A stretch of DNA of 64,000 bases from Balanoglossus misakiensis. Taxonomy: Eukaryota; Animalia; Hemichordata. The notes below the pieces were generated by a model that saw only the letters and a list, made by a program, of their open reading frames with translations, did not search any database and had not been told where the DNA came from. The stretch is taken from assembly GCA_040954595.2 (NCBI GenBank), contig CM082576.2, positions 4,934,760-4,998,759 of the forward strand. The letters run 5' to 3'. Positions 871 through 61,575 of this stretch are shown in pieces (positions within the stretch are counted from its first letter, which is position 1; each line of letters begins with the position of its first letter). Both the position numbers and the translations under genes were made by a program.

Positions 871-3620
871 ATTGCAGTTATTGAATTTGGACGAAAAGCG
901 TCGGGCGACGGAGCGTTTGAATGGCCCAATTACGATTCAGCGAATATTACTTTCTCGATCACGTGAACGCAGCCACAAAGAAAAGTGGCTCATCCAATTA
1001 CAACACGTGTGTTTTTGCTATTATACCATTTCTCTGAAAACCGCCAGGTCAGCACGTTTTAATGACGAAAACAACGCACCAGCGACTCCTTGTGTGGAAA
1101 AAACGTCAAAGATGGCAATTTTATCCTTTTTCAAAAGCCACTAACTGGTATACGTATTGGTTTGTTGAATTCAGGTTGAGATAAGTTATTAGATTGACAG
1201 AGTGGCCGTTGGATCTTGGATAATACTTACAAAAATACACAGGAGTAGTTTAAGTACGCAACCAATTATACATTGTCCTTTCAACATTTTCCTGTGCACT
1301 CCAAACTTTCTCAACTACCCTAATAATTCACACTTTCCAATCAAACGATACTAAACAATTTTAAGTTATGATGACCGGATTTTGTTATAAAACATCGTTC
1401 TCAGCTACATGCCACTAACTAAATGCATGTGAATTATAGACCTCAAAGATATCTTCAGATTTTCTTTGAATTCTTCAAAACTTCATTGCAGTTGCCACAA
1501 CCTATCGGATTTTCAGTTGCTGTTTTTTAAGTGATACTGCCTTTTTGCCCGATAGAGTTGCCGAGTCCATGGAGCTACCGGTCCTTTTTATTTAATGTAC
1601 GCATATTTTATTCAAATGATAGTCATCAACGCAAGGGCAATGCCATGATTTGTAGAGTGCCCTGCAGACAGTGATCATGACCGCAATTAACTGGCATATC
1701 CCAATTGCAACGACCCAGGAACCATCAGGAGCACCAACCCCTGGGTAGACCACAATTCATGTCTTCACTTAATGGTATACGGTCACTTAACCAAATTCAT
1801 CCACATTTACCATTGAAAGTTGAGATCTACCCAATCTCAGAATTTGCCTTGTCAGGAGTGTCCTATTGGCAGGATCAGCTGTTTATAGATTTGCACCTTA
1901 TTGTTTTAGCCAATCAAACCATGTGCTATACACGCACGTATAACGAACACGGCAAACGGAAACTACTGTCAAATATCTCCAAGGGTGCCATCCAACATCA
2001 CTGGTTCCAGACACGTGCACCTCATTGGACAGCGCAAGCGTTGTAGCAATGTCATGTGATTTTGTTTTAGCCAATAACAAGGCCCGCGTTGTTTTTGAAG
2101 GATAGCAATAAATTGATTCCCCAAATGTGAATGCTTTATTGTTGAAAAAAGGTAGAGAAAATACAGGAAGTATCCTCCTTCGTGACCGCGACCAAGGCAC
2201 TGTACTGGCCAGGCCAAATTGAATAGCATGTCACGTGCCTCTTTCAGCCACTCACAAATGACAATACAAATGTTGTTGTTTTTCCCCGCTGAATATGTGA
2301 TGTTGCTCTGGAAAAGTACTGATCAACATGAATTAGGTACACATAGTCACGACAGGTCAAGTTGGCACATTTATTCAGTCTGTGATTTGTTTCCAGTCTC
2401 CCCTTTCAGTATTTTCTGCAGCAAAATTAAATGTCACGCGCATGCACGATATACTAGACTGTATTTTAAACAAGTTTCCGAGCAACAGCACGATGGACAT
2501 TCGCGAGATGTTTTGACTTTGTAACTTCGACCTGACGGGGGTACGCGATGTCTGATATTGTGCTATAATGGTATTGATATTAATAGTTGTGTTGGACACA
2601 AGTGTGATGGTACACCAGCGAGAGCGACTGGAGAACCGAATTTAGATTATGATATCGCTCACATTTGCATAGTGGCAGTGATGAAAGTGTGTTTTGGCGG
2701 GTTTTATTTTGATAAACACACCTACACACCGGTATTTCAAGTCCTGCACAATTCCGGTCTCTAATCGATGTAATGAAAACATCTATACAACTATCGCCAG
2801 TCATCTATAAGTCGTACTTATATTTTACTCCTATGAGTGTCGATTCTAATAATTCACGATCAGCGGTTACTCCAGCAACGAAATCGAGTAAAGTACCATG
2901 ATTAAACCCAGGCTGCGGGCTTTCTTCGCAAGTGTTTTTTTATCAAGCCATCGAACACTGGCTGCGTCCTGTTTTCATCAGTCTAAAACTGTGGTGTGAG
3001 AATTTTAAAATGCATTTTAGAATTGTATTTTATTTTCAAGTATGACTGACATTTACAATATGATCACGCCTCATTTGCTCACACAACTTGGCACTTTGTC
3101 AAGTAGGCCTAATATGTTTTTGTGTTTTGTTTTTAAAATTCCTGCAACATAGGTTTGAAGATATAAATTTAAAGACAGTGCCGAATTATAAGTACAATTG
3201 GTTGGAGAAGTAGGTTGATATGCCTACTGTATCTGCCATCGGCTTATTCACTGGACTGCTATCAATAATGCATGATAAAGTAAACTACAATCTCAAAAAG
3301 TAGTAAACAAACATGAAGAATACAAGTTCTAGGTTTTCGTACACGCTAGCAATACACAACGTAGTATGGATTGTGATTTTAACGAGTATGTGTAATTTAC
3401 AACTATTGACACGATTAATGGTTCTAGGTGGAAATAAAATGGCAACGGATCGCGACAGTCGATCGTAAACTTAACTACCGAGCATTACCCAGTAGCTCTT
3501 TTTAATCATGGAAAGATCAAATTCACAATAAAGTTGGGGGCAGGTGAGTAAAACGCCTCGTTACACACGTTTCATTCATGAAACAAGGAAAAGATGGCAA
3601 CATATAAACGCCTTGACAGG

Positions 3621-4046
3621 TAGTCTCGGTTACCCAGAGCCCTCTGCTTCTTCCGTTAGGCACTCCAGAAAGAGGGTCTGGGGAAACCCGGTAGACTAAC
3701 CGTCAGGCGGAATCGGGACAGCTGCGATGCATGACGGGAGATTAATATTCCAAAATGGCGACGTCCTGCGCGCGAACCCACGGCCGACATGTATGACATA
3801 CGATAAAGAAAACATGCTGAGAAGTGCTAGACCTGCTAAAACTGTATACAAATTGAAAAGAGAGAGAGAAGTTCGGTAAATAGTTTTCTAATATCGACAT
3901 ATCATAATATCGTATCGAATATTAATCTCCCGTCATGCATCGCAGCTGTCCCGATTCCGCCTGACGGTTAGTCTACCGGGTTTCCCCAGACCCTCTTTCT
4001 GGAGTGCCTAACGGAAGAAGCAGAGGGCTCTGGGTAACCGAGACTA
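3621..4046. mobile_element. Non-autonomous DNA transposon (MITE), 426 bp, perfect 130-bp TIRs, 9-bp TSD CTTGACAGG
   Basis: 3621-3750 is the exact reverse complement of 3917-4046. CTTGACAGG occurs at 3612-3620 and 4047-4055. Termini are TAGTCTC...GAGACTA. Confidence 0.95.
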
Positions 4047-4599
4047 CTTGACAGGGTGAAGAGCGCACGTAAACGGTGCGCCACCATTCTCGCGACGTGT
4101 ATACTCATAGATGAGTCGGCCATCTTTGTTTTCAAAGCTCGACTCACCGTGCACTGCGCACCGTCCTCGTCCGTAAATATTTAATGGCATTGTCTTTTTG
4201 ATATTCGACGCAATGATGTGCCGGCATTGCTCTTCAGGTCTTGTAGATGAGAATTCCCTATGGGACAGGTCGAAAAGAGTTCAATGCCGCAATATCAATA
4301 TATCGTCTGCTCTGTAGCCTTGAATTTAACGGTAATTCCATGCTTGGAATACCTGATATTGTTTCTTGCGACCGACACCTTTTTCGTTTTCAATTGTCCT
4401 ACTCGTCTTTTTCATCTTCTGTAACATCGCCTGCTCGTAGATTTATATAAAACATACAATGTTAACCAGAAATATTATTTACTTACGACGTTTTGTGGTT
4501 TCGGGGGTTTATTTTCGAATGAATTCACATGTACACTTATCTACTGTATGTACTCGCGGGGCAGGTGATACCTGACCTACTATCTGCACTTTAAAAACA

Positions 4600-38510: not shown

Positions 38511-39433
38511 CAGAGTTTCCGGTAGTTTTTTTCCCCAAGCGTATGCCATACGCAAGAGGTCAATAAAAATGCGTACGAAGGTGATTTAAATGCGTACAAT
38601 GTATTCATATCACATCCATTAGCAAACTGTTGCAAAATAACGCAAAACACTTCAAATGGCACACATTGTAACCAAAAAGAATTCTAAACAGACCAAACAG
38701 CTTTTGACGTGATTTTACGTTTACAGACAAATGACGTCGCTTCACTATGATCAGTGCCTTGCATATGCCGTTTGATGGCCGATTTTTTAAGATCACGAGA
38801 ACCTCGCGAGAAAGCATTCTTTTTGCCATATTTTTCACAAATCTTACAGAAAAGCACGAGTGTCTTTTTTTCTGCCGCTTTCGTCGACGTCGTGCCGTAA
38901 CCACGGATACTCGGCGAGCCACTGATCTTTGAATTCTGTGTGGCCAGTCTTTGCATTCTCTCGCATTTTTTTCACTGGTGGGGCATCCCCCGCTGACTCT
39001 TGGTGTTCCGAATCATCGATTTCAGTGGCTTTCTTTCCATTATCAGTATAGGATTTCGACGTAAATTTAAATGAAAATAAAGTTGACTGTTTTGCCGTCA
39101 TGTTGATCGATATTACACGTACGCAGGCTCACGTACGTGACGCATGGCATGATGATTAGAACGCGCGCTAAACGAAAATTGTTACATTTTATCATGGTCA
39201 AGCGTCTGCGCAAATGGTTTGGAATGTTGCAATTTTATTCAAAACATGTAAGCGTGCACAAGGTGCTGTCTAGTTTGTCGGTCGTTTGATGAGTCTTTTG
39301 TTAGCTCGAACTTTCAATGGCGAAAACAGAGTCCATTTCATTGCGTACGCCAGACGCACTTGTCGGTTCAATATGCGTATAGAAATTTTCCATTGCGTGT
39401 ATTACGCACATTTTTGCGTAACCGGAAACTCTG
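38511..39433 (-). mobile_element. Internally deleted hAT-like DNA transposon, 923 bp, 13-bp TIR CAGAGTTTCCGGT, 6-bp TSD ATACAT
   Basis: CAGAGTTTCCGGT at 38511-38523 and ACCGGAAACTCTG at 39421-39433. ATACAT at 38505-38510 and 39434-39439. Subterminal TGCGTA/TACGCA motifs at both ends and an internal zinc-finger remnant. Confidence 0.88.
38684..39101 (-). pseudogene. Frameshifted, truncated N-terminus of a hAT-type transposase with a TTF/C17orf113(ZNF862)-like zinc finger
   Basis: ORF 38844..39101 gives FKDQWLAEYPWL. After a frameshift near the A-run at about 38865-38872, ORF 38684..38956 gives LFCKICEKYGKKNAFSRGSRDLKKSAIKRHMQGTDH. Together they form the F-x3-W-x3-YPWL...FCxxC...H-x5-H motif. 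Confidence 0.8.
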
Positions 39434-41232
39434 ATACATGTGCACTACTTTAGAAATGTGATGACCCAGACACAAGTGAGTGAATGTCGTCATCAGTGTG
39501 AACTCTGGAAGAGAGGAATCCATTTCCTGGCTTGGGTTAGTGCCCAACAATTATAATGACTTGTAAATCCGTGTTGAATTTGCTTGAATGTACTTGTACC
39601 CAAGGTGTGTTTGATATCTGGCAACTGCCCCAGTGCGATGACGTCAATTTTGTTTGTCATTAATAACCGCCACTGGAAAAATGCGGATGAGAATCTGTAT
39701 CAAATTAAGGATCGCGAGACGTTTTTTGAGCAGAGTTCATCAAGAAAACGAAAATAGACGGCTATATAAATACCATCAAGTAAGCATAGCTGAATTCATA
39801 AACTTCATCCTTTCAGCCTCTTGTGTTTTCAGATTTTTGTTGCCCTATGGCACGCGTGATGTTTTTTGCCGAGCAGTTGATTCACAGGTCAAAGGTCGTA
39901 TGTTGGGTATGGTATATCCTTTCCAAAGCTAGTGACTTGAGTTTCACCCCTTGTTGTTTCCCAGGATGCCAGATTTCGTCCGACATTTATCGGACATCGA
40001 GCCCCATTTGCCTCATTCACGGTGTCCATTGCTGAAATCTGCAGTGTCACTCCACTTTGATTAAAGACGGGACACTTCAACCTGTGTCAACTCACAGGCG
40101 TACCTGTCCGGTCAGCCTGCTTTTTATAAAGAGATAGTTTGTTGCCTATGGACAATCCATCAGTTATATATTACGTTTTCATTATTCAATCATTTGACAG
40201 ATATAGCACAATATCATCAACAATTACTACACAAGTGACCCCATTGTTTTGAAATATTATAAAAACAAATAATAATTCATGGGATCAAATTACACTCAAT
40301 AGATCATTGATATTTTTGCCATGCTGGTCATACAGCAATTCAGAAACCACTACATATGTTGAAGAGAGAAGTACCCGTCTCATTTGAGCATTGATGACTT
40401 GATGAGACATTTAAATATGGATTAAATTTTTTTATCGAATCAGTCACGTACATCATTTAACAATTTATTAGATTATTAATAGTAAGAAGATAGACAATAG
40501 CATTGGTGATAGTCTAAGAGTAAATATGGGTGCATTATCTTGATTTAAAATTTTGAAAACTTTAGTTCGTGAAATTTCGATGCAGTTGAGGATGATATCA
40601 GAGAGAAGTGATGAGGCTCATATTTGATCGTGTTCATCTAATCTAACATACACTAAGTACACATCCTGTCAGTGTGAAAATTATGTCAACAACTTTGTGA
40701 AAGACCTTTAGTACATATTAAATTTCAGTATTTCACTGGACAAATATATCTGGAAAGATGAACAAAATCACTGTGATTGCATAACATATTTTATTTTATC
40801 GGATTCTGTTGACTGATTGGTTTGTAACTAATTCAAAACTATAATTGAAGCTCCAAGGGCATCGTCTTTAATTTGAAATATTGTTCAGATTTGCGAGACT
40901 GGCCCCAATGGGACTTTTTATCACAATCATCTGACTGATATGATTCACAATAGGTAATCTCTAGAGGAGACGTCAGTTGCAATGCTCGCAGTTTTCATGT
41001 TGTCGTGGAGACTGAGTGTGTAAGCAAAATGCTGTTGTTAAAAGCTTGTCAAAACGTCAGCACAAGCAATATTATATTTTACAGTAAAGGCCAAGGGCAT
41101 AACAGGTTTAGTGCCAATGAAAAATCAATAACACGATGTTAGCCAACCATCCGTTTTATGACAGGCTAGCAGATAATAATGTCAAGAACATACTTGTAAT
41201 TTATCAAAATTTCCCACTGTACTGTGGCTAAG

Positions 41233-44200: not shown

Positions 44201-44949
44201 AGTTGCCTAGGATTTTACACGCGAGCCAACAGCTGATACATTCTCCTAGTTCTTTAGAAAACTTCACGCTTCTGAGTTTTCTTTTCGGATTTCTTACCGG
44301 AAAAGTGCAAATTTGGGGGAGTGCGTGAACATCTCTCACCTGCAACTCAGCAGTGGATGAAAGTTTCTAGATATCAGTTGAATGGGTAGGTCTGTTTGCT
44401 AGTGCATATATGCTGTCCCATCCTTTAAAGCTTTTGAGGTTCAGAATTTTTTTTTCTGTTGTATATAATTGTACAGTATTATATCTTTTGGCGGTGTTTT
44501 TGAGTAAATAACGTTATTCAAATTCGGTCATATTCCAGAGAAACAGTAGTTTGGTACCACTATTAATGATAACGAATGACTAACAATGATACAGTTTGAA
44601 CATCAGTTAATTGCAACTATTGAGTCATTTCACAAATTAAGATTAACCTGTCGGCATTTTGATGATGCTTTCGCGCTGTAAATTATTTGTGTTCACGAGT
44701 GGAGTACATTTCATCCCCGGTCATTGAAGTTGTATACGTACATGTTCTATCAGTTAACAGTGGTGTGCGTGTGTGTGTTTTCCAATTTATCATTCCAGGG
44801 TTTGTTTATATTTGCAGAAAGACCACCGATTTCATGCTGAAGCACTCCAAAGGTCACGCAGTTGTAGACTCGTTGAAAACCCTCTGTTGTGTTGTTCGAT
44901 TTCAGGACACGCTGATGATAAAGAAGGGATATTCGCACACTGTTTTGAA

Positions 44950-45093
44950 ATGGCTGCCGATCAGGAGAACGCACCCGCCTCTAGCGGTGCCGGGGGAACG
45001 AAGAAGTCGATAAGGGAGCGCGTCCTCTGCGCTGTTTGCTCCGACACAGCCAGTGGTCGTTACTACGGAGCTATCATCTGTGAGGCCTGCAAG
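44950..45093 (+). CDS. 2DBD-NR coding exon 1: short A/B region plus first zinc finger of DBD1 (MAADQEN...[22 protein letters not shown])
   Basis: C-x2-C-x13-C-x2-C finger. ATG in GAAATGG context. Donor AAG|GTAAGC at 45093/45094. Acceptor TTTCAG ends at 44905, so the exon starts at 44906 with an open frame before the ATG. Confidence 0.92.
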
Positions 45094-48000
45094 GTAAGCA
45101 TATAGACCCGGCCGCGGCCGAAAGCTCCGTATCATGCAAGGCTGGGTCGTTTCCGGGTATCCGTGACTGTCGGTGCCGGATGCTGCTTGCAAGCGGGATA
45201 GACTCGTGAAAACATCTGGCCCATATCTTCTAACCGCGGAGTGAAACTGGTTTACACAGCGGGGCCGTTTATTCAATTGTTTTACTCTTGCATTCACCCC
45301 TCACCTTACTTTCTGCAAGGCACTGTAGCTTCAGAAAACAAAATCATTCATCATTCTGTTCTTAAATTTTTATAATTAAAACAAACAGCTGTTTGATATT
45401 AATCTGAGTTTCATAATTTTTGTAGAACCATTGTAATGTTTATTTCCAATCAGGATGTACAAAAATTTTCATGCCTGTTTTCTTCATCTAAATGTTCAAA
45501 ATACTCTATAAATGTAGTTGCGACTATAGCAGTGTCTATCAGTGATAGTGAGAACTGATTTATTGAAATAAATTGGTAGTCATTAGTGTCAGACAGGCCT
45601 GGGTCTATAGAATCTCCTAGAATACATCCTGAGCTTGCCGGAGGCAAAGCTGTCAGAACAGAAAAACAACAATGTTTTGTGATCCATCCTAAGATGATTT
45701 CACATTGATTTTAATACATATTTTGATTAGTTTGTATTTGTTTGTTTGTAGATGCAAAAGTTTTAGCAAACCTTGAACATTCCACATTTTCTGTTTAACT
45801 GCGCAGCATGCCAGGAAACGAGGAGTAGGACAACTCCTATGCCTGCTAATGTCTTTCAGTTAGTATGCAGGCCACAAATACTAAAAGCGTTGATGGAGTT
45901 CTTTTCAAAAATGAAAAAGTTTTCACACGTGTGCCACTTGTATATGTCTTTCTAGTATGACATTTAAATTACTGGTTTCAGACTTGAACAATTAACATTA
46001 TAACTCACTCTAAGTAACCTAAGTTGAATTGCCTCCCTTCAATGTGAAAATGCTTGTCATTACTGTAATAGATGTCTTAGCATCACATAATTCTTATGTA
46101 ATTCTTCCTATGTGGGCTTCTTCGACTTTTGACTGATTTTGCCATGGACACATAACAAACTATAAATCTTGGGTTTTATTGTCTCATGCATTTGTTGTTG
46201 TTTACAAGAATTTCTCGGTGGTAAAAGTGGCAATAGAAACACAGGCCTCTCCAAACACTGGTACCCGTCACTCTAGTGAACAGCAGTTGTACGTACACAC
46301 GCAGCCTGAAGCGAACGCCAAGTCAGATTGCGATGTGACGTCCACTGCAGCGGAGTGAACAGGGCAAGACAGCTGTAGGGACATTATTTACCGATGATTG
46401 CCAATGTTTTGTGCGATGTTTTCATAGTAATGGCCATAAATCATGACTGTCTGATGATGAGAGGGCTGTACGGTCACGTATCCTTCATCATAAATTTGAG
46501 ATGTTTGCAATGTGGCCAGCCATGCATACAACGTCCAGACTTCCTGTACCACAGCCCTTTGTAAGGGACTATACTTCACCAATGTTACCTCCCCTCCATG
46601 GAATGCGAAGGTCCCCAAACATACTCAGATTTTTTTTCCACTTTTTTTTTTTTTTGCATTTGTGGACCTTCGGTGATGTCAAGGACAGAATTTCAGTTTC
46701 ATTGTAATTGCTTTCTCAAAAGTCAAGGTAACATTCAGATATCAGACACAGACACGCATTCCCAGTCAGATGGCTTCTAAACTATTGTATATGTTACACA
46801 ATTTATTGCTAATAGCTCTGGGATCTGGTAACATAGCTCATGCAGCGTACATATTTTCCCTTTAAAAATAGTCACTCGTTGATCAAAATAGAGGCAAAAT
46901 ATTACAGCAGTTGTTGAATTATTCACACACTGACGTAGTTTTTCAGGTCTTTCTGGTAATATGGTGAATAAATTTACTTCTGAAAATATTTATAGCCTTG
47001 CTGATATTTTATCATGATTCTTGATCGGCATTTCATCATTAGTAAAGCGTATACTTTGGAATTCAATCTCCCTTACATGGAAAGAAAAAACTGAAATATT
47101 GCTCTTTCAGTAATTTCAATGTAGTGAGCGAGCGCATTGTGTACATATATTAGAGTTGTCTCCGCCCAGTGTCCCGGGAAGTATGTCAGTAGGACAAATT
47201 CAGTGAAAGTGTTTTATTTCAGTTTAAGGTACATGCAGTTTGCACCTCTGAAATCAAAGTGGTAAACTTTTTCTCGTGTTTTTGCTCTCAAGACAAGGTT
47301 AGAACATATTCTCCCCTAAAATGCATGTGCTACAAAATTCATCATTTTCACCATTTGTCAAAAGTTAATTATTTCTGAACAGGCGACCTTCTAAGGATTG
47401 ATCAGTCACAGGAAATACTTTTCCTCGTCTTTCAATCACCAGCCGTCATCAAGAATGAACTTGGAATGGAACGGACGGGGTGAGGTGTAATGTGCCCTCT
47501 CAACTGCCCTACTTTTTCCCCAAGCAAAAATTTAGCTAGAAATGGGTCATGATACTTGTGCCCCTGGTTTCTAGAAGCAGGTCACCTTCTTAAGTTTCCT
47601 TTGTTCATATGAAATCATTTGCAAATTTCAAGAGTTTGTCCCTCTCTCTACTAAGTTTGGGATAGAGGGTTTGCATCGCTGCACACCTCTGTCTCAAATC
47701 TACCAGAATATCCCAACACCCACACACATACATGTATGGCACACTTGGACATAACTGTGAATTGATGCCAAAATGATAGAAATAATTGTGCTTTTGACAT
47801 CTGATTAACAGGGGAATGTGATAAGACTTTATATTTAGTATTATTTTGCCCACATAGGTATGACCTGACACATGCTTCGTGCCAGGTGTTATTAATTCCG
47901 TCATCAGTCAGGAATATAGAATGCAGAATAATGGCAAGTAAACAGAAAGCTTAGGAATGGCTTTGGTCTTGAAATGAATGATGTTGTTTTTGACAGGACA

Positions 48001-51000
48001 ATTAATTGAACAGATGACCTAGAAAGCCCCAACATTCTCAATAGTCATAAAACCTGACATGTAGAAACAGCTAGCCGTATTGCTCAGGATTGTCAAAATC
48101 ACCACAACAAATATTTCATTTAATTCCTTATGGGAAGAAAGGTGAACGAGGCAGTGGCAGCAATTACACACAGATAAACACTTGCCGATCGAGTTGAATT
48201 TCTTGAGAACCGAATTATGATGTGTATAGATGCAGTAGTAGGCTCTTGTGTGTTCTGAAAGCCACTTAAAAAAGTGTAAGGACTAGCTGTTGCTTAGCTA
48301 TAAACACAACTGCTTGTTTGTATTCAGCAGACAGGCTGCAATGCATGTTGGGTAACCGCGTTTACCCTGTCAGACCCTCCCGATTGGCAACCGTGTTTAA
48401 GTTGTGCCTGCTTCCCTACATATTTCACTCTTGTAACAGTTTCAGGTGCATGTTTTGACTCCTCTCTCATTGTTTGGACGATTTGGCCTTGTCATTTACA
48501 CACAAATACCTTTGTTATGATTGTCTAGGATGCTCTCAAAAGAATTCAGATTGCCACAGTTGCAGTTTGCTACAATGAGACCTAGCAATCACTCAATCAG
48601 CTTTGAAGGATTTGTGAAATAACACAGTTGATTCACAAAACAACATAGCAATAAAATAATCAAAAGTCACAGCTATTAAAAGGTTTCTGGGTGAAAGTTC
48701 CAGTAGGCAATAAACACTCCCACCACTTACAATATGAAACAACCCATGTTTGTTCAATAGCACGGGTGAAACCATATGCAAGAAAATAGGGATGTATGGG
48801 AGGGGGAAGACTTTTTTGTTTTGAATTGATTGTGTATCAAATTAGGCACTTTCAGTGGAACATATGGTGTATTTCCCTACGCTGCTTAAGGACTAGTGAT
48901 TTTCATACATGTTTGTTTCGTGTACTGTAGAATTTGTAGGTCAGAGAGAAAAGAGTAATTGACCCAAAGGGGAAAAACTGACAAATTATTCATGATCACA
49001 TTTATGCAAAGGTTCGTTTTTGACTTTTTGATGATTTTATTCATCTAAATCCATGCAATGTCAAGTAACTAAAAGTTGACTATAAACAGGCAGTTTACAT
49101 GTTTTTACGAGATGTTCATTTTATGAATATGTTTTTTTTACGGGAACTGCTTGCCCTTTTTTATTGCTGCTATTAAAGTCTGAAGAAAGAGATCAGGGCA
49201 CTTGTTGAATTGCCATGCCGCCGGAAAAAAACATGTTCCCGCTAATCTGGATGTAAATTTGGTCATTATCGTTCTCTGGGAAATCAACACATGGATTTAC
49301 TTTATAGGTGAGAAATCATAAGACTCACAGGTACGCAAGCAGCACAAACAAGCCTCCTTTTCCCGTCCACCAACAAGGCACACACACAGACAAACACACT
49401 GTATAGGTTCTGATTTGCTGACGAGTATACTGCTCGGTCTTAAAGAAGTGTTTGTCCGTATGACGTTCTGATTTATTAAAATTTGACATGCATGCAGGCG
49501 CGCATAAATTGAAACCAGTCTGTCAGCTGTCAAGCCCTGTTGATCTGTTCCCAGAGGAGTTGTAAATTCTCTTGTGAAGTTTGGATGATCGATGACCCCT
49601 TGCGCCTTGTTGGGTACTTCGACAGCTCCGGCGAAATGCTGGCGATGCTGATTGAAAGATGGTCGGACAGGTTACACACAAGAATGCACACGCTTGCGTG
49701 CCACCGTGACCCCTTGACAGTGGGAACCAATTCCCCAATTTCAACCAAAAATATCCTTGAGGGGATGTCGGAATTTGAAGATCTGTGTGGTGGATGAGAA
49801 CCGACTCGACTGACCACCACCGAGTGTCAAATGCACACTCTCAAAGTAACAAATCAAATTTCATCGACAACTTGCAGCTTAAAATTCATCTGTGTGTCGT
49901 CTTGACATCTGCTTCTCAGTTCGTCAGGACAGAGTTCCATCTTCATGTTTTGTAAAGGCACATAACTGTTAACTGCAACATTTTAATATTCCCAAACGTT
50001 TTCTTTTTTCATCAGGCACTTTCATTTTCACTGCAAAATCGTTAGCCTGTCGGGCTGTAGCTTGATTCAGTGGAAGGTACTATACACCATGCTTCGATAT
50101 GGTCCGTTGTTTTTCCTTTCAGAGAGAGAATTCTCAGCATGCAAATAAGCTCCTTTGCCAAAAATGCATTGGAGCCAAATACTTCAAATGCCATCGTCCC
50201 TTCCCCTAGTCGAAAAAAACAGAAACAAGCCAAAAATGAAGGATGGATTTCTCATTGCGTTCGGGTGACAAGTGACAAAAAAGGAGAGGGGGGGGGGGGG
50301 GGGGAAACAACAAGGCGATCGGTTGATGATGATGGAATGACATCTGTGAAAGTGGACCAGAAGTGGGGTACCCTGTAGGCCAAAAGTCTCATTTATTGTG
50401 GCCCATTGATACGGGGGCGCAAACAAGTGATCCTTTACCGCTGGCTATTTGGTGAATACATCCACACCCGTCCACTAACGTGTCATCTAATATAAAGTGC
50501 CTCAACACGACTACTTGGGCCCTAAGAATTCAAACTATCATTGGAAGTGACAGGACAATTAGTAAGCTGTTCTCCCCGTGTCACTCATTGTTATAGATGT
50601 AACTGAAGGCTTGTACCAGTTGTAGACAGAGATTGATGAAAGAAAGACCAAGCGAATACCAATGCAGGGTTCGTCTGTCCTTTCTGCACCCAGGCATAGA
50701 TTTTCTTCTGATTCTAAATTACCAAAAATACATGTAAAGTGTGAAACTTGCTCATTTGTGTGATGACACTCAGACAGGTACATACATGTAGCATATGGCC
50801 AATAAAAAGGACTATACAGTGGGTACTTTGGTATAAAACTTTTCCTGATACATATACCATCCCAACTGGTTAAAAGTTAAAATTGATGATGTGCATACAA
50901 GATAGATGGATGACTTGGAAATGTCTATAGCTGGGACCAACCAGGGACGTACACTGGCTTCTTTTGTTGTCCCCCCATTGTATGCTTTGTATCAAAACCC

Positions 51001-54000
51001 TGACAGCTTCCACCCCTCCCCCGCTATGAACTGTCTATCACAGTGATTGATTCGCAACACACTCAGCTGAAACTGACAGTAATTTGTAGTGTGTTTTGCC
51101 TGAGTTTTTCCCCCAAGAAGTCACCCCCCAACCCTCCCGTAGAAATATGCATGTGATGTGTGTGTTATGCCAACCCCTCCACCGGAGGCAAACCTGATGT
51201 GTGTCAGTGGAGCCGAGACATTTACATATCACCTCAGCTGGTGAAGTATGTAACGAGTACATGATCTCCCTAGAGATGCATTCCCTTCTTAGCCGTTTCT
51301 GGCCTTCCACACCACGGCCAATACATCACACAATTACACCAATTGGGATCAACAGAGGGAAAATTTGATTTGCTTGTTTTTTGTTGGGCAGCCAGGCTGA
51401 TCTGATGAATTGGTTTCTGACACTGTGCTTGCACCAACCCAATTGGCCTATCCCATAATTGCTCACAATTGACACCGCGATGGCTTTAACAGACAGACCA
51501 GCTGGTGGTACAACCAGTGCTCTCAGTCTGAGACGCTGTAAACAATAGTTCTCCCAACTTCGATTGTGTTTAATACATGCAAATCCGGGCTATCAGTGTC
51601 ATTTTGTAGTCTGGTCTTTTTGCCGAAATTGTTCAGACAGAAATCAGAAACCCCATTGGAGTCATATCATTTGCATGGTAGGCGGAGAGGGGATCATATG
51701 AGGCTTTCAGTTGCACATGAATGCTGCTTTAAAGCCTTGAGGCGAATTCCCCTATGTCATGTACCAGACCTTGTCACCTGTTTGCGATTATCAGTTTCTT
51801 AAACACGTCTGTTTTGTCTCACAGTATCCCAGTGAAGCTAATTATAGTAATCATCAGAGACTTTTTGGTCTTTTGACTGGAGGGTCTCTGTGTCTGAAAT
51901 TAATCATTCAGATTCATTCGGACTTGAATTTATTGAATTGGATATGGCTAGGTTCAGTCAGAAAAACAAGAATGGCAAACTTGCGTGGTCTCTGGAATTA
52001 AATTCACCTGGAGTGCGCTTGTTCCTCAAGTGTTATGAGAAAAACACAATTTTGAAAGACCAGTGAAGTGCCAACCAATGTAAAATATGCATACCAAAAA
52101 TTTTCCCTGGGGGGTTTGGTGGGTAGAAGAGAGACAAAAGTCATATTACTGGCAAAGAATCAAGCAGATTGTGCATTTTATATATAAGTACCATAGATAA
52201 TTTTCCAGGAAGTGAAATTTTTGTCTTTTTTGTCTTCAGATTTTCTTCATACGGAGCACAAGAAAAGGAGAACCAGAGTTTGTGTGTGCCAATGGACAAA
52301 GATGTGAAATAACACCAACTACAAGGCTTCTGTGTCAGGCCTGTCGATTCAGAAAATGTATCGCTGTTGGCATGTGCAGGAAAGGTGAGAATAGTCTAGC
52401 CGTTTTTGGGCGATGACTGAATATATTTCTTTGTCATTTCAAATTCTTAAAATATCAGCCATTATATAGGTAATCACTTTATCAGAGGTGTCAAGAAAGC
52501 TATTGACAGTTATGTTTAAATAAGATTGCTTATCAAATGTACAGCTTAGATCTTGTATATCAGGGAGTGAGCCAGAGGTTTTCACATTGGTTGAAGCATC
52601 TGTGCACCTGGTTTGGCAAAAAAGGTGACCAATCAGAGAAACATGTACTACTCTTTCACTTTACACTCTACAGGTTTGCAACAGTAACTTTACTAAAGAA
52701 CACATGGCTAAACAGTGGTTTTCTGGCATGTAGCTTATGCTCATGTATGTCAAATGTATATTAACAGGAGTGTTTAATTTTTTTACCCATCAGAAAAAAC
52801 ACCCCGAAGACCTACACCAGACCAGATCCTTTGTCGTGTGTGTTTAGATGTATCATCTGGGATCCATTTTGGTGTATACACCTGTGAAGGCTGTAAGGTG
52901 AGCAAATAGGGACGGCAATACCCAATAGAATCAGTAAACTTGGGATCTAATAAAAAACTGGTCAATTCTTTGATTTCTTTCTAAGTTTTGACAAAACCTG
53001 CTGGTCTCATTTTAGTAACTTTGTTTTTTGTTTCAAGGCCCTTCACTGGTGTCAGAATAAACTGTAACAGTGTTACACATAATAATAAGTAAATAGGTAA
53101 ATATGTGAAGAAAGAAGAAACCATAATATTTTAAACAAATGTGACTTTTCTTTTTTGTTTCTACAGGGTTTCTTTCGGCGCAGTTCCAATTCCGGGGATC
53201 ATGTGAATTATAAATGCCAAGGCAACCGAGACTGTGAAATAACACCGACCACTCGCAATCTCTGTCGATATTGTCGATACCACAAATGTCTTGCCGAAGG
53301 AATGTCTCGCGATAGTAAGACATCTAACTCTATGAGTAATTATTAATTTTTTATTAGTTCCTTCTTTTTTTCTGACTTTATTTTATTTGTGCATGTGTGT
53401 ATGCCACTGTTTTAGTTTGTGATGTTAAAACTATAACACAGCTTGATACTAATGATCTTGTTCCTAATTATGCTTGAGTTTTTCATATGTTTCAGCTTAT
53501 GGCTGTCTCTCTACTCTTAGTTTTTCTTTGTACAGGTATAGTCTTGTAGTTTTATAAGTGATGATTTTAGCGGAAGAAGGGAAAAAATACATGCCCTTGT
53601 AGTGTGTGTGATGGGTTTGAACAGAACTGAAAGAGAGAGAGTATTTATTAAATGTATCACTCAAGTCCTAAAATGCTGAAATATTGTTCCACTTTAATGT
53701 GATGTAACTTTTTTTGTGAAGTAATCATTGGAATTTTCACCTATACAATTTTGGCCATTCTCTCAAGCATCCATTCCATCTCACCTTGACCTCATGGCTC
53801 AAATGCTTCAAATTGTTTTGACCACAAATGACAACACTGGGAAGGTCATTTGGGGTCATCAGGCCTTATCTTTGTACAGAAAAAAAAATGTGGGATTCTC
53901 ATATCTCAAACATGCTGTTTACAATGCAATCTCAAAAAAATTTGATTTTGTGATATGAATGTTGATATTATTGGCGCACCCCAAACCTCAGACAGGTTGG

Positions 54001-57000
54001 CACTTTTGTAGTTATACCGGTATTGTGAATACGGTTTTGCCACCAGTTGTAATTTGGTTGAAATAGACAAGTTATAGATAAAACGAATAGGAAGAATACA
54101 TAACTAGTAAGATATGTAGAAATACAAATTTACTGTAATTCCCAGGGATTCAAGTGCCTGCGTTTAGGGCGTCAAATGCAATCCCACTTTCTCCTGTCAC
54201 TTCCCATGCAAATCCATTTCCTGGTATCCATTTCACATTTGGACTAAGGGTGAAATTCCTGCCGTCATAATTGTTGATCAAATTCACGAAAGCAAATACG
54301 TTCAAAAGGGACTCATTTCAGTTCATTAATTCACACAGCTATTGGGACTTTTTTCCTGCATCCACCTCTGCATGACTTATTATTTTTGTCTCACACAATA
54401 ATCAACTAACTTTGCAAGTTACATTCCTAAAAAAGCGCCTCACATATTACCATATCTTGTTCGATTTCCAAGAAATCCAACTTGGACGTCACCACAAAGA
54501 TGGCAAGGATGACAAGAACGAACATTCCGCCTTTCACGGTGTTTCAATGTCATCTGCAGAAAATGACAGTAAGTTTATAAAAGTCATATCAAATATTTAT
54601 CTTTAATGTATAAGAAGGTGTTTTCAACCAGCTAACTACCGTATAGCCCTTATCTGCATCATTGGACAGTAGCCATTCTATATGGTCAGAATTATGTCAT
54701 AGTACAGTACTGGTACTGGGAATAGTGTTTTCTGAGAATCCCATGACTAATTTGAGAAGATTACCATTCTGACAGTAGAGTTTATTCTATTGGCAATCAT
54801 TGAGTTGATTAATCAGTTTGTTAAACTCTCAAAACTGTTGACGTCATGGCTTTACCTGCTATCTGTTGGTGATATTAACTATCAGTTGGACAGCGTACCT
54901 GTCAGCACCCAAAACTTGACCTGTTCACCCCCAAATCCCTGTGGTGTGACCTATCTGACCATTGTCAACAATGGGAACATTGTCCAGGATAGGGGGATTC
55001 TTCAGTGATGAGGGTGTCTAGGTATTTAACGGTGGTGCAAATGTTAGCCTATCAATTAAACATCCTGGCCACCAACTATGAGATGTACAACCATGGTTCT
55101 CCACAAGTGGACACAGTTATATTTATGTAACATCTGCCCCACAACAGGAAATAACAAAAATGAGACGAAAAATCCATTGAGATATAAAATGGTTAAATAA
55201 ATTTCACCAGTACATTTAATGACATATATCAAAATAAAGCCTTACAAAAAGATAAGTTAAAGTTTGAATTTTTTTTTGCAATCAACGGTTGTTAACATCT
55301 TAGAAAATGCTAATATGGACAGTTAGCATTCTGTTCTTGTCTTTTGTCTTGCCAGGTTCAAAATTGGCCACTGTGCGTGGAGGTTCATCCATAAAGACAG
55401 AGCAATCCTCCAACGAGAGCTACCAGTATGACACAACCACTCAGTTTTGGGTCAACAAAGAAGGAACGCCGGAAATCTCTGCTGTCTCGGCCAACTTCCA
55501 AGAGCTGGAAATCAAGCAGGATAGCAACCTGTCGCCGCCACACGCAGCAGCCAACGGATACCAAGACCCGCAGCATGACGGCGGTAGCTATGGTGACAGC
55601 GGCAAGTTTTATCCAGCGGAGTCGGGCGAGCACCTGATCTCTCAGCAAGCGGACGACATGAACCAATACTACAACGAACAGATGCACAATCTGCCGCCGG
55701 AGATGGAAGTCAGTGGATTCACCGGAGGCAGCAACTTGGTGGCCATTCAGAAGATAATCGACTCCGAAGACTATCCGACCGATCTGAATGTTGCATCGTC
55801 GTCGTATACAAGCAGTGGTGCCACGCAACACAAACCGACGTGCACCCTTGATTTGCAGAGCTGCTCCCCACCGATCACCCAGAGCAACTACTACATGATG
55901 CAGTCGGAAGGCAAAAGCAAGGCGCAAAAGACCGAACCAAAGTACACCAATGCCCCTGCGACCGAAAATCAGCTGCCCACCCAGTACAACACAGCGTACT
56001 TGGTGAACTTGGAGAAGGAGTACCCAAGAAACACGGCCGAGGCCCAGTACCAGATTTCCCCAACCTGTATGATGTCCAGCCCAGGTCAACAGCATTCCAC
56101 GGGTGAGATGTATCACGGCAGCACAGGCAGCGAGAATCCGCAAGGTTACTCAGTACTCAAGGAGGAAGTGTTCCCCACGTCGAGAAACGAGCAATGCCAG
56201 TTGCAATCCAACCCTGTCAAGAGCCCAAGAACCAACGTCATAAAGTACGCCAATGAGCACCACCATATGAAGACTGAGCCTCCAGGGCCCAGCGGCTACC
56301 AAATGCCGGAGGTCTCCAGACAAAATGTCTACCTTCCCCCGGGCAACAGCTGCTGCACGGGGACAGCTCACATCCGACCCAAAACCCAAGACCAGTATTT
56401 CCAACCCACCACCATGGCACCTGTCACTTCTCACATAACTCCGCACAAAAATCCAGAGCCTTACTACCCGCCAGCGTTCGAGCCCATACCGGAAATCTCT
56501 CTGGGCGAGGAACTCCACCAGCACGTTCCGCCGGCCACGAAACAAGATGTCATCGAATGCTGGAGTTACTGCCCCAATTCGCATTGCCAAACCAACACAG
56601 TGAGCGTCACTTACCCGACGTTCGCCACAAGGGCCATGAATCATCGCCCCGAGAGTTCCTTGGACTGTAAGGGCAACCAGAGTGTTTCCCACGCGCAGCT
56701 CAGCCAAGACGTGAAACCAGTACGCCCTGTGTTCCCCGAGCTTGAACTCTACGCCCAAGGTATGAACAGTGCAGGTTTGGGCGCGTCGACGAACCACGGG
56801 GGTCCGAGGCACCACCACCAGCCTGCAGGGAGGGTGCACAAAGATAGCATGACGTGTTCACATAGGCACCAAAACTATGGTGAACCTCAGGACATTAACC
56901 CCCCTCTCAAGAATGTGCAGCACGAAGACACAGGCCTGGAAGGGTTCCAAGAATTCTGGGAGAGAGTAGCGCGGGACCTGTTGGACGAACCCAAGACAAG

Positions 57001-60000
57001 CTGTCCACACGACGGCACCTTGAAGACGCAGTCCTCGAGTGCAAACAACTCCGAAGCAGACCGGCCCGCCAGGCAAGATCTGGACCTCATCGGAAACAAG
57101 TGCGTTCAAACTCCCCACAAAAACTTTTTGAAAAAGCAGTACCCCAGCACTCAGCCGGCCTTCGCGGTGCCCATCATCACATATCCCAATGTTGTGAGTT
57201 CCAAATCAATGAAGAGGGAACATCCAGATAATGCAAGTGAGGTGCCACCGGCCAAGACTCTCAATGTTACCCCAGAACAGATGAGAAGATACATCAAAGA
57301 GGCCTACAATTGCATGCATCAAGCCATGACTGCATATTGTGACTCAGAGGAACACTGCAAGGCATCAGAAGAGGTAGGAGGAAATTATTAATAAGTGTTT
57401 ATGTTTATTGAACTTTGTGAATTTTTTCTGAGGAATATACTTTTCAGTCAAAAATCTTTCTTGCACAACTGCATGATGCTCGCCTAGTACAGTACAGTAC
57501 AGTACAGTACAGTACAGTGCAGTGCAGTGCAGTACAGTGCAGTGCAGTGCAGTGCAGTGCAGTACAGTACAGTACAGTACAGTGCAGTTTTTCATAACAA
57601 TTTGGATCATCTTATCACACTAGGCAATATTTAAATAGGGTTCAGATTTGAAAATTTTGTATTCTGAACAATGTGCCATATTTCTGACTTTAGTTGTGTA
57701 GATCAGGTCAGCCTGTTGGGCCGGCATGGGAGATGGTGAAGGAACGTGTAATCTGCCAAGATTCATCAGTGGTCAAGTTTGTCAAGAAAGTACCTGGTAG
57801 GTTGAAATCTATCATCTGTAATTTCGGGTGTTGTGCTGAAAATCAAACAATATTCAATTGGCCCAAAAATCAAAGAATAATCTGTCCTTGAGATTTTGTT
57901 CTGATACTTTTCAACAAGTATGGAAATCAACAGGCTCATGAATGGTAAGATTAATTTATTTCTGAGGACAGGTGTAAATTATGACCGGCATTTTCAAGAT
58001 TTCCTCTGTTTCATATACAATTGTACAGCTAGGCTTAATTTTGTGTATGAATAGTATTTTTTTTACATGTACATGTAGTTGTTACCTTTGAAATATACAT
58101 CTGTATTTCAATTGTTTATTTCCAAAATTATTTCTAAAAAATACAAATACTGACAAAGAATCAAGGGAAAAAATATTATCCATTTGTGACAGATTGTATA
58201 TGAAAAAAGAGAGTAAAAATTCGCTTTCTGCATGTGTTGTGTAGGACAGTGTGTCACTAGGGCAGGTACACAGCTATGAACTGTCCTTGAACTCTTTCCA
58301 GTACATGTAGTTGTAGCCACGCTAAATGAAACATCCATACCAGTGTGTGTAGCTTTAGCCGAGAAATGATGATGAGCCACTATGTTGTTGATCTCACTCA
58401 GTTTCTCTAATTAACTTAGATAATTATTATTTATTGAATATGATTAAGTTTTAGCTTAATTGCTTTTGTGTGCCTTGAAATTCATTCGATCTACATGTAT
58501 ATTGAAAATTTGGATAATTGTTCAGTATAAAAATTGTTTTGTCTGAATGTGGAATATTTTTTATAACGTGTCAAAAGCACCAATGAGATATACCCCATAC
58601 TTAATTTTTGGTCAATTTGAGATGTTCATCCTTCAGATGTAATTTCATCCTTCAATTGAATTTGACCTAACAGTTATTTCCTGGGAGGACAACCATGTGT
58701 CTGATTCTGAACTACAGCTTGAAGTATGAAGGAATGATGTTGTGTTTCATATAACTACAGTGGCAGTTCTGATCCTGTTTTTTTTTATTATATTGGTATT
58801 ATCGTAGCCAAACACAAATGCAGTTGCTATATTGTTTATTGCAGCCGCTACTCTAAAAATAAAAGCTCCTATTTGGATATACCACAGGATGATCTATGAG
58901 GGGACTAGTTGATTTCTTCGGTTCAAGGCCAGTTCATACAACCGTGTACTTTACCCTACAAAGTGTCACGCTACCCTAGTGAGATTTTCTTGAGGCTGAA
59001 TGACTTACAACTTCCTATTCTTGCAAAAGAGACACGTGTTAAGAGACTTTCACTATCAATCGCATTTTTGGTATTTTTTGAATTTTTCTCATTCCACTTC
59101 AGATAAATAGGACCCGCTCTTTTATTTTCACACACACACACCCCCACCACCACCAAAGTATGATACAGACCTTATGTTTATGTGGGCAAGGTTGGACCCC
59201 TGCACTTAGAAATAGGGGTGATAAGGTTTAACAAGTGTAATCGTTAAGAAAGCTGCGAATAGAACTCAGAAAAAAAGCAAAAGTTTGTGATGATCCTGTA
59301 CATGGAAGAGTTGAGTGAATTCTTGTTGCAGGGTTATACAGAGTTTAGATTTGATAATTTCGAAACGGGGCCTTCGTTTCCTAGCAAGAATAGGTGTTGT
59401 AAATTTTACACATGTTGACATATGTATAAGTACAACATCATAAATAGTTGATTTCAAGCCAGATAGTCCGGGCATCAGTGAAATTCTGTCCTGTTCCCCA
59501 GATGTGTGACCTGATAAGGTGAAGGATATATGCCACGGTGAAAAGTGGTACAAATTTGTACTTTTTGTACAATTGTCTGTTAATAAATGCCATTTCAAGG
59601 CACACAGGTAATTGTTATAAAATAACCACTTTATGGAATCTTGTAAAGTTTTTGAACTGAGTACTTTCAGCACCATTTCATCAAACAAGTGCTTTTGATT
59701 CTGTGTTTCTAGGTTTTCGTGACCTGATTATGGGTGACCAGATCATGCTGGTAAAGAACAGTGCTTTTGCTGGACAGGCTCCATACATGTCGCACCACAA
59801 CGACATCTACACCTGGTTCGTCAAGACGGTGCTGGAAATGAAAGGCTTGAAGGCCGTCGTCAGTTACTTCAAAGAGATCCTCCAGGGCTTCGTCATGGAT
59901 TTCCAAAAACTCAACTTGAATCAAGAGCAGCTGGGGCTGTACACAGCCGTGGTGGTCACCAACCCTAGTGAGTATATAGACAACCCCTGTTTTCTGCTGT

Positions 60001-61575
60001 GTTTTGGTTTAGTCCTGTAGTCTTCAATGGTGTGGTTGGAACCACATGTGGTTGGAAAGGGGTGAAAGGGTTTTATTTAAGTATGTTGCTCACTTTCACT
60101 GTCTACGTGCGCATGCGAGTGCACACACACACACACACACACACACTTACAAACTCACTCATTCAGATCAACATCAATGTATTGCTGTCAGAGTAAATGG
60201 GCAAAAGAGTACATAGTAACACACAGCTGATGGGAAAGTACACGAGTTGCACGCCTTCACTTTGATAAATGAGACCTTGAAACATTCTATTAAGGGGTGC
60301 AGCTTTAAGCGCACTCTGCGGGTACAAGGACGACTGGATGCATGCATCATCCTTCTACCAGTGTTTTCACTGAATGCACTAGAACTCCCACTACAGTATT
60401 TCGTCTTCATCAAAAATATTAATGAATATCCTTCAAATGAACAACTGTCTTGTAACTGTCTGGTGATGTGTTTAAAACCCCTGACATCCACAGATGTAAT
60501 TTTAAACACAAAAATTCTGTTTACCATCAATGCCAACAGATGCACATCACCTGTGAATTTCTTACTCATAGCCATTAAGCGTCTTGTACCCATATACAAG
60601 GTGGCCTGCATGCATTCTAACATGTTTATATCCATTCTATAAATAATTATTATTAGGCGATTCATGTATGTACCACACATGTGGATATGTTTGCTGTGAA
60701 GAAATGGTCAACTTTCATAGAGAATGATGGTCATATTTGGGAATACTTCACAATCCCCCCCAAAATTCTCAGTTGTATATATTAATTGTTCTTTTATTCT
60801 GATGCTGAATCTGTCTTTTGATTTTTTCTTTTCCTGTACAGATGCTCCACAATTAGCAGACAGGGAGTCTGTTGCCAAATTAAATCAAGTGATCAGTGAG
60901 GCCTTGAAAACTTCTATCAAAGGTAGGCATGCAGTCATTTCCATTCAGGACAAGGTCATTATACGATTAGTATTCCAAGCCATGCATGAGAATCATCAGT
61001 TCTGATATAAAAACAGCGAGTGTATGTTCTCTACATCTGTCCTGTAAACATTGAATGAATTGCCCGCATGTGCTTGTCCTTGTCTTACTTTATATGTACA
61101 CGTGGCCTGCTTTCCTGTCAGTATTTGATTAATATGTCAGGCAAACGTTTACTTTTAATAGTTTCATTTGAGAATTGCAATTATATTCTGCAATTTTTTT
61201 TTAATTGGTGTAATGTTTTAGAATATGTGTTGAATTTGTTTGTACATTCCAAAGTTCATTATTTGTCCTAGTTGTTGTGTGTATACTGCACATAGAAGTT
61301 TTAATTATGGAGACTTCTAAATTAAAATTCAGTTTTCAAAGAACCAATGATCGAGTTGGGTATTGTTGGTTTGTATTTTCTTTACTCTTAATCAACATTT
61401 TTCCTTTTGTTTATATTTTGCAGAATCTGGGAGAAGTATGGAACTGTACAACACTCTCCTTGATTTCTTGCCGGAACTCAGTCGAATGAATAAAGTTCTC
61501 AAGAATGGATTTCGAACTGGTCAGCCGTCAGTGAATTTTGAGATACCAGCTCTGTCAGCAGAGCTCTATTACTAA
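44950..61575 (+). CDS. Nuclear receptor with two DNA-binding domains (2DBD-NR), spliced gene, about 1081 aa; join(44950..45093,52240..52384,52794..52897,53167..53314,54473..54568,55356..57373,57694..57796,59713..59967,60842..60922,61424..61575)
   Basis: Manual splicing. All 9 introns are GT..AG with phases 0,1,0,1,1,0,1,1,1, and the exons sum to 3246 nt = 1082 codons including TAA. The product has two complete C4 nuclear-receptor DBDs, a T-box-like KIQLGR, the LBD signature [24 protein letters not shown] and a C-terminal AF-2-like PALSAELYY. The N-terminus may extend upstream. Confidence 0.93.
52240..52384 (+). CDS. 2DBD-NR coding exon 2: second finger of DBD1 ([48 protein letters not shown])
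   Basis: Not in the ORF track; translated by hand. Polypyrimidine tract plus CAG acceptor at 52239, donor G|GTGAGA. Carries FFxRS, C-x5-C-x9-C-x2-C and CxxVGM motifs. Confidence 0.93.
52794..52897 (+). CDS. 2DBD-NR coding exon 3: inter-DBD linker plus first finger of DBD2 ([35 protein letters not shown])
   Basis: Not in the ORF track. CAG acceptor at 52793, donor AAG|GTGAGC. Canonical GxHFGVxTCEGCK. Confidence 0.94.
53167..53314 (+). CDS. 2DBD-NR coding exon 4: second finger of DBD2 ([49 protein letters not shown])
   Basis: Lies within ORF 53155..53346. Acceptor CTACAG, donor A|GTAAGA. Confidence 0.95.
54473..54568 (+). CDS. 2DBD-NR coding exon 5: C-terminal extension/T-box ([32 protein letters not shown])
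   Basis: GMSRD-KIQLGR matches the nuclear-receptor GMSxxAVxFGR pattern. Phase 1-1, acceptor TTTCCAAG, donor A|GTAAGT. Confidence 0.85.
55356..57373 (+). CDS. 2DBD-NR coding exon 6: 2018-nt exon encoding a long Q/P/S/T-rich hinge and probable LBD helix 1 ([14 protein letters not shown])
   Basis: 694-codon stop-free ORF (55307..57391), visibly more GC-rich than the flanking introns. Acceptor TTGCCAG at 55355 (phase 1), donor GAG|GTAGGA (phase 0). Confidence 0.9.
57486..57588. repeat. Compound pentanucleotide microsatellite (AGTAC/AGTGC) x20 in the intron after coding exon 6
   Basis: Directly visible tandem array. Confidence 0.97.
57694..57796 (+). CDS. 2DBD-NR coding exon 7: LBD helix 3 ([34 protein letters not shown])
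   Basis: Acceptor CTTTAG, donor G|GTAGGT. Encodes the first half of the LBD signature motif. Confidence 0.88.
59713..59967 (+). CDS. 2DBD-NR coding exon 8: LBD helices 4-8 ([19 protein letters not shown]...[19 protein letters not shown])
   Basis: PGFxxLxxxDQxxLxK signature and a helix-8-like LxLxxE...NP. Acceptor TTTCTAG, donor A|GTGAGT. Confidence 0.92.
60122..60147. repeat. (CA)n microsatellite
   Basis: Directly visible, about 13 units. Confidence 0.95.
60842..60922 (+). CDS. 2DBD-NR coding exon 9: LBD helix 9 ([27 protein letters not shown])
   Basis: Resembles the D-x-P-G-L-x-D-x-x-x-V-x-x-L-Q helix-9 pattern. Acceptor TGTACAG, donor G|GTAGGC. Confidence 0.88.
61424..61575 (+). CDS. 2DBD-NR terminal coding exon: LBD helices 10-12 ([24 protein letters not shown]...PALSAELYY*)
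   Basis: LLxxLPEL helix-10 motif and AF-2-like end. Acceptor TTTTGCAG, stop TAA at 61573-61575. Confidence 0.9.

Follow-up and report, generated by a model that had tools for sequence, protein, structure and literature searches.

The analysed window is a stretch of 64,000 nucleotides (nt) from the acorn worm Balanoglossus misakiensis (contig CM082576.2, positions 4,934,760 to 4,998,759). Ten coding exons were recognised on its + strand between positions 44950 and 61575. Judged by their sequence, they very probably form a single intact gene encoding a nuclear receptor that carries two DNA-binding domains (DBDs), that is a 2DBD-NR, of the family's group B. The spliced coding sequence of 3246 nt contained a single, terminal stop codon and gave exactly the 1081 amino acids (aa) that an earlier note on this DNA had reported for its model. 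In the predicted protein, DBD1, a 16-aa linker, DBD2, a Grip box, a hinge of ~660 aa and one ligand-binding domain (LBD) follow each other in this order.

Exon structure and the Ptychodera flava orthologue

All nine introns had GT–AG borders, with 12–15 pyrimidines within the 17 nt 5' of each acceptor; intron 1 was 7146 nt long. Both DBDs were interrupted by a phase-0 intron right after the P-box Lys, and the linker was divided between exons 2 and 3. The junction 52384/52794, on which the earlier note had rested its tandem arrangement, was GT–AG and in frame. Each of the four DBD exons matched the Pfam profile zf-C4 above its cut-off (profile positions 2–24, 26–69, 2–24 and 25–70). Since these matches run through the profile twice in order, two full DBDs are indicated, which agrees with the arrangement claimed in the note, including the 16-aa linker. 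A nine-exon model without 54473–54568 (1049 aa) was replaced, a tblastn search having revealed the Grip-box exon.

A search with the hinge exon returned one protein among 3593 candidates, Ptychodera flava XP_070577170.1, which RefSeq lists as an 'uncharacterized protein' of 1127 aa and not as a 2DBD-NR. It contained both DBDs, was collinear with all ten exons and was identical at 793/1081 residues. By part, identity was 66/67 in DBD1, 16/16 in the linker, 65/68 in DBD2, 13/13 in the C-terminal extension (CTE), 412/662 in the hinge and 199/229 (87%) in the LBD. Because this protein was annotated independently, its collinearity with the ten exons argues that the gene model is not due to chance, and the domain-wise conservation is the pattern expected from purifying selection on a working gene. 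A pseudogene was rejected, as no internal stops were present and conservation followed the domains. The orthologue and the window gene have the P-boxes (EACKI and EGCKG), the linker and the LBD changes in common. From this one gene, the source animal is likely a near relative of P. flava but a different species.

The two models differed at the N-terminus and in exon 4. The P. flava model has a 33-aa N-terminal extension beyond that of the window gene, and the first 21 residues of this extension had no convincing match in the window upstream of the gene. The exon with the ATG starts at an acceptor of its own (AG at 44904–44905), which means that the gene has a further exon upstream of it, probably an untranslated one. 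One candidate for this exon, with its end at 39779, would bring an in-frame stop ahead of the ATG, as judged by eye. In exon 4, a second, downstream donor is in frame, adds no stop and gives a product of 1088 aa instead of 1081 aa. The P. flava model uses this downstream donor and includes an identical 7-aa extension, and the donor is therefore probably used at least in part. The stretch ahead of the Grip box is 5 aa long via the upstream donor and 12 aa via the downstream donor. For comparison, 205 sequences were collected, 104 of which had the tandem layout with linkers of 16–22 aa (isoforms and near-copies included); the 5-aa spacing of the upstream-donor form was found in 97 of these 104. 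In sequence P0067, which is near-identical to a sea urchin protein, the open reading frame (ORF) joins the sea urchin sequence just 5' of the Grip box, which suggests that an intron sits where the window gene has its intron 4.

Table 1. Exons of the predicted 2DBD-NR gene in window coordinates
Feature	Position	Strand	Content
Exon 1	44906..45093	+	ATG at 44950; N-terminus of 26 aa, then DBD1 as far as the P-box Lys (first zinc finger); own acceptor, AG 44904-44905
Exon 2	52240..52384	+	P-box Ile49; DBD1 recognition helix and second finger; linker begins; zf-C4 match
Exon 3	52794..52897	+	Linker completed (16 aa in all; 16/16 against P. flava); DBD2 first finger; zf-C4 match
Exon 4	53167..53314	+	DBD2 recognition helix and second finger; with the upstream donor, the pre-Grip stretch has the 5 aa typical of the family
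Optional exon 4 extension	53315..53335	+	21 nt / 7 aa; second donor GT 53336-53337; gives 1088 aa
Exon 5	54473..54568	+	Grip box (QLGRH) of the CTE; tblastn with the P. flava protein, E 6e-07
Exon 6	55356..57373	+	2018 nt; Ser/Pro/Gln/Thr-rich hinge (predicted disordered) and LBD helix 1
Exon 7	57694..57796	+	LBD helix 3 and beginning of the signature motif
Exon 8	59713..59967	+	LBD helices 4-8; Gln992 at the conserved helix-8 Glu position
Exon 9	60842..60922	+	LBD helix 9
Exon 10	61424..61575	+	Helices 10-12; conserved His position taken by Leu1057; Glu1078 of AF-2 (activation function 2) retained; stop TAA

Placement within group B and changed residues

A tree of DBDs and LBD was constructed from 26 rows chosen from about 200 sequences (379 columns, LG+C20). 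The window gene and the P. flava protein formed a pair (support 100/100) within an ambulacrarian group-B clade (100/99). This clade was sister to the spiralian group B and separate from group A, with groups A and B divided at 100/100. On the DBDs alone, the group-B placement had a support of 81/90. In a DBD-region query (cut-off 1e-45), the next matches after P. flava were ten echinoderm proteins and one from Glandiceps, followed by molluscan proteins. Compared by eye with supplement S2 of PMC10497141, sequences P0003 and P0011 were identical in their DBDs to Ap2DBD-NRB and Spur2DBD-NRB. On these sequence comparisons, the window gene is a new member of a known family, in its echinoderm-type group 2DBD-NRB. 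Membership of group A was rejected, as motifs and tree placed the gene elsewhere: 2DBD-NRA proteins (Sm2DBD-alpha, -beta and -gamma, Branchiostoma 2DBD-NRA) share the architecture, and their DBD1s have a common origin with that of the window gene, but they carry the first P-box EACKK and the Grip box RxGRQ and form a separate clade. One collected protein of another layout, Argonauta hians GAB1611135.1 (P0055), combined four receptor-type DBDs with a C-terminus that was enzyme-like and took the place of an LBD.

With 13 single-DBD receptor rows in the tree, all 12 DBD1 rows fell on one side of a branch (100/99), which indicates that the DBD duplication is old and rules out a recent internal duplication. 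Support for a common group of the DBD2 rows was mixed (47/92). Within the window gene, DBD1 and DBD2 were identical at 34/67 positions.

The first P-box EACKI was present in 2/104 tandem-DBD proteins, the window model and XP_070577170.1. It did not appear in supplement S1 of PMC10497141, which includes other P-box-divergent members inside group B. Ile at the fifth place is not unique by itself (MPCKI in the cluster of sequence P0082). Echinoderm 2DBD-NRB proteins have EACKS as the first P-box, differing from the window gene by one residue, and the same second P-box, EGCKG. DBD1 has FFIR where DBD2 has FFRR. The Grip box QLGRH keeps xGRH, whereas its first residue is Gln instead of the Lys of group B, KxGR(P/H), and of the echinoderm proteins; Gln at this place also occurs in sequences P0042 and P0049. 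A linker of 16 aa was found in 4/104 tandem-DBD proteins, compared to 17–18 aa in echinoderm 2DBD-NRB and 17–22 aa in most 2DBD-NRs (PMC10497141).

The LBD had diverged further. Columns fixed in the other ten ambulacrarian B proteins were kept at 93/105 in the DBD region and 27/42 in the LBD, so that 15/42 fixed LBD columns were changed, and the echinoderm LBDs were 24–28% identical to that of the window gene. Helix-3 Lys and the AF-2 Glu (Glu1078) were retained. The helix-8 Glu was replaced by Gln992 (Glu in 64/69 aligned LBDs, Gln in 4, Amphiura among these) and the helix-11 His by Leu1057 (His in 59/69). In NR1 receptors, the helix-11 His is a pocket residue, while the helix-3 Lys and the helix-12 Glu hold coactivators. 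The helix-8 Glu (E50, a position mapped here through PMC9535869) was reported for all 2DBD-NRs (PMC10497141); it is a descriptive trait and does not define the family. The Amphiura LBD was alike divergent (31/49, leave-one-out count); LBD divergence alone is thus not unique to the window gene. The changed residues would likely alter the DNA and the ligand recognised. Single-DBD receptors of the NR1 type (ROR, Rev-erb/E75, RAR, VDR, FXR) resemble the window gene in the recognition helix of DBD2, the CTE spacing and the LBD fold, but have one DBD, and nearly all of them possess the helix-11 His and the helix-8 Glu.

Two further hemichordate group-B proteins, Glandiceps talaboti XP_077991522.1 and Saccoglossus kowalevskii XP_006818146.1, weakly joined the window gene (81/77). 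Unlike the window gene, both keep echinoderm-like motifs. Their LBDs shared 44% identity, whereas the window LBD was 27% identical to that of Glandiceps and 24% to that of Saccoglossus. The stem branch of the window gene and P. flava measured 1.03 changes per column, compared to 0.21 plus 0.35 for Glandiceps. Under a simpler tree model, the pair became sister to all other ambulacrarian B rows. Constraining Glandiceps to group with the window gene cost 6.15 log units (approximately unbiased (AU) test, p 0.043), a borderline value that involves a long branch; fast evolution and hidden paralogy are therefore both possible. In the hemichordate phylogeny, Spengelidae form the sister group of Ptychoderidae and Torquaratoridae combined (PMC10114407). 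The Saccoglossus model starts inside DBD2 and is without DBD1. It is probably a truncated annotation, which may be the reason why hemichordates were missed.

2DBD-NRs have been described from spiralians, nematodes, echinoderms (group B only) and amphioxus (group A only) (Wu & LoVerde 2023, PMC10497141). The listing of echinoderms and amphioxus in that survey does not bear out the earlier note's description of the family as patchily reported. Its main text makes no mention of hemichordates, Saccoglossus, Ptychodera or Ambulacraria. The Lymnaea genome paper includes Saccoglossus in the orthogroup but states that, apart from Lymnaea's own, none of the proteins there has two DBDs. The term 'nuclear receptor' is absent from the main text of the P. 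flava genome paper. A hemichordate 2DBD-NR was not found in the literature searched, which covered few subscription papers and leaves absence unproven. The suggestion in the note of a possibly undescribed lineage therefore holds in part: hemichordates were not covered in this literature, while the family is known and the tree places the gene in the echinoderm group B. New here are the hemichordate member, which fills a gap in the family, its long stem branch, EACKI, the two LBD changes and the second exon-4 donor; the architecture itself is not new.

P. flava had at least four 2DBD-NR genes, in group A XP_070577101/102 (EACKR), XP_070577168 and XP_070577173-175, and in group B XP_070577170. 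All were on contigs of 41,862,543 bases. The four genes likely lie on one chromosome, and the near-consecutive accessions hint at a cluster. Of the deuterostomes examined, P. flava alone had both groups, in keeping with two ancestral genes of which echinoderms lost one and amphioxus the other. The likely linkage of A and B in P. flava hints at a tandem origin of the groups. Close A and B accessions are also listed in Table 6 of PMC10497141 for Pecten (XP_033734716, XP_033734800), Gigantopelta (XP_041351218, XP_041351328) and Bulinus (KAH9507289, KAH9507198), which hints weakly that the linkage is old.

Predicted fold and proposed DNA recognition

When exons 6–10, which encode the hinge and LBD, were scanned one by one against Pfam, no match was obtained (the Grip-box exon was outside that scan). 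The P. flava orthologue gave two zf-C4 matches and a weak Hormone_recep match (26.4 bits, cut-off 23.5). Of the domain set proposed in the earlier note, the two zf-C4 domains were thus recovered, while Hormone_recep was weak in the orthologue and had no single-exon match here. Alignment showed one LBD at the C-terminus, complete with the signature motif and AF-2, and its fold was predicted on the orthologue. In the AlphaFold2 model of XP_070577170.1, residues 61–210 mostly had a predicted local distance difference test (pLDDT) score >90, with linker blocks at 85 and 76; the hinge was <50 and the LBD mostly >85. The predicted LBD aligned with solved NR1-type LBDs (Z 24.8 for VDR; root-mean-square deviation 2.7 Å, 221 residues), and its best Foldseek match was ROR-alpha. 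Both DBDs and the LBD are thus predicted to fold, and the hinge is predicted to be disordered. Together with the open frame and the collinear P. flava protein, the LBD alignment and predicted fold uphold the note's view of an intact, divergent 2DBD-NR with one LBD. A two-DBD receptor was not found among the 60 best PDB sequence matches listed.

We propose that the receptor acts as a single chain whose linked DBDs read one two-part DNA site. DBD2, with EGCKG–FFRR as in NR1 receptors and the Grip box, would anchor on an AGGTCA-type half-site and its flank. DBD1 would read a variant neighbouring half-site, since EACKI retains the P-box Glu and Lys, and the bulky Ile49 would likely shift the preference at the fourth half-site base. 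The short, invariant and basic linker would fix the spacing of the half-sites. With helix-3 Lys and helix-12 Glu kept and helix-11 His lost, the protein would likely be an orphan activator whose ligand is changed or absent. We give single-chain binding of one two-part site an even chance, and the complete statement, an intact group-B 2DBD-NR working in this way, stands at the same balance. In steroid-receptor DBDs, the residue at the place equivalent to Ile49 sets specificity, and Val there packs on the thymine methyl and favours A4 (PMC11105156, PMC4500092). At this P-box residue, Glandiceps and echinoderms have Ser, the window gene has Ile and group A has Lys or Arg; such natural variants lend themselves to a comparison aimed at what DBD1 reads. 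A DNA site or a proven ligand for any 2DBD-NR was not found in the literature searched.

Several observations weigh against this proposal. The reading of Ile49 is an extrapolation from the steroid-receptor background, in which Ala to Val alone reduced the affinity for all sites (PMC11105156, PMC4500092); the main text of two steroid-receptor scanning papers holds no measurement of the combination EAKI. The one published binding test found for a family member, electrophoretic mobility shift assays on Schistosoma Sm2DBD-alpha, was negative: AGGTCA repeats with spacers of 1–6 nt were bound neither by DBD1 or DBD2 alone nor by the two combined. The protein forms LBD homodimers in two-hybrid and pull-down tests (PMC1810520), and these results together point to four DBDs per complex or to a different site. 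The fold prediction was made on the P. flava protein with DNA absent. Skipping of exons 2 and 3 or of exons 3 and 4 retains the frame, and relatives have annotated one-DBD isoforms (sequences P0183, P0185 and P0204), so that short products may occur as minor forms.

As proposed for flatworm 2DBD-NRs, an LBD homodimer could bring four DBDs to the DNA, on two half-site pairs or two bridged sites, which we consider somewhat unlikely for this receptor. The Schistosoma result is joined by a like one for Eg2DBD-alpha1 as cited in PMC10497141, and an RXR heterodimer is made less likely by Ala at the place where class II receptors have the loop 8-9 Arg. However, these dimerisation tests concern group A and the window gene belongs by its sequence to group B, where the helix-8 Glu of the class I bridge between helix 8 and helix 10 (PMC9535869) is Gln in this gene and the helix-10 partner is Ser, and the flexible 660-aa hinge would uncouple LBD dimers from the geometry of the DBDs. 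A prediction of the LBD homodimer for this receptor scored 0.00 and gave no verdict either way. It is unlikely that DBD2 alone binds DNA as a monomer in the style of ROR/Rev-erb or NGFI-B, leaving DBD1 to weak or non-specific contacts or to protein binding. DBD2 does have a Grip box and the complete recognition helix of NR1 receptors, FFIR replaces FFRR in DBD1, the Ala to Val change cited above lowered affinity at the equivalent site, and the 12-aa pre-Grip stretch of the long splice form equals the length given for NGFI-B (PMC10497141). Against this, DBD1 is the domain best conserved with P. flava and keeps the base-reading Glu and Lys, and the group-specific first P-boxes are stable across phyla, which suggests sequence-specific use.

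The alternative that no two-DBD protein is made, the DBD exon pairs being mutually alternative or parts of separate genes, is very improbable. Splicing of exon 1 to exon 4 and of exon 2 to the hinge exon would both be in frame, and the length of intron 1 could be taken as favouring it, but the linker that is split over exons 2 and 3 is fully identical in P. flava, XP_070577170.1 contains both DBDs, and about half of the collected sequences (104/205) share the tandem layout. In a more far-reaching scenario, in our view doubtful, the single-chain proposal is extended to a functionally re-tuned branch of 2DBD-NRB in acorn worms, which may be a second B paralogue of hemichordates. It would have changed in a burst, fixing a new first P-box, losing the pocket His and the helix-8 Glu and gaining a splice switch by which the DNA-gripping extension becomes longer, and as a monomer free of ligand it would read a new two-part site. 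With this gene and three of group A on a single P. flava chromosome, the tandem duplication from which both groups arose in the bilaterian ancestor would be preserved.

Remainder of the window

At least five 2DBD proteins matched only the exons of this gene, and no second nuclear receptor gene was found in the window, with the 2.4 kb downstream covered. Among 122 ORFs of at least 75 aa in 1–44900, no intact protein-coding gene was recognised, though small exons would escape this screen; against Pfam, these ORFs gave one real match and one below the cut-off. An Rfam search gave no match. At 38511–39433, an element of 923 bp was bounded by perfect 12-bp terminal inverted repeats, with ATACAT (6 bases) on both flanks, and contained a zf-C17orf113 remnant (38687–38971, - strand, E 3e-12). 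It is likely a non-autonomous DNA transposon. An inverted repeat of 140 nt (3611–3750 and 3917–4056, 98% complementary, 166 nt between the arms) resembled a miniature inverted-repeat transposable element. Intron 6 contained a microsatellite of AGTAC/AGTGC pentamers at 57476–57590. The observed/expected CpG ratio exceeded 0.95 in 30 one-kb bins. All of these lay before position 40000 and the gene body had no such bin, a distribution that gene-body methylation would be expected to produce.

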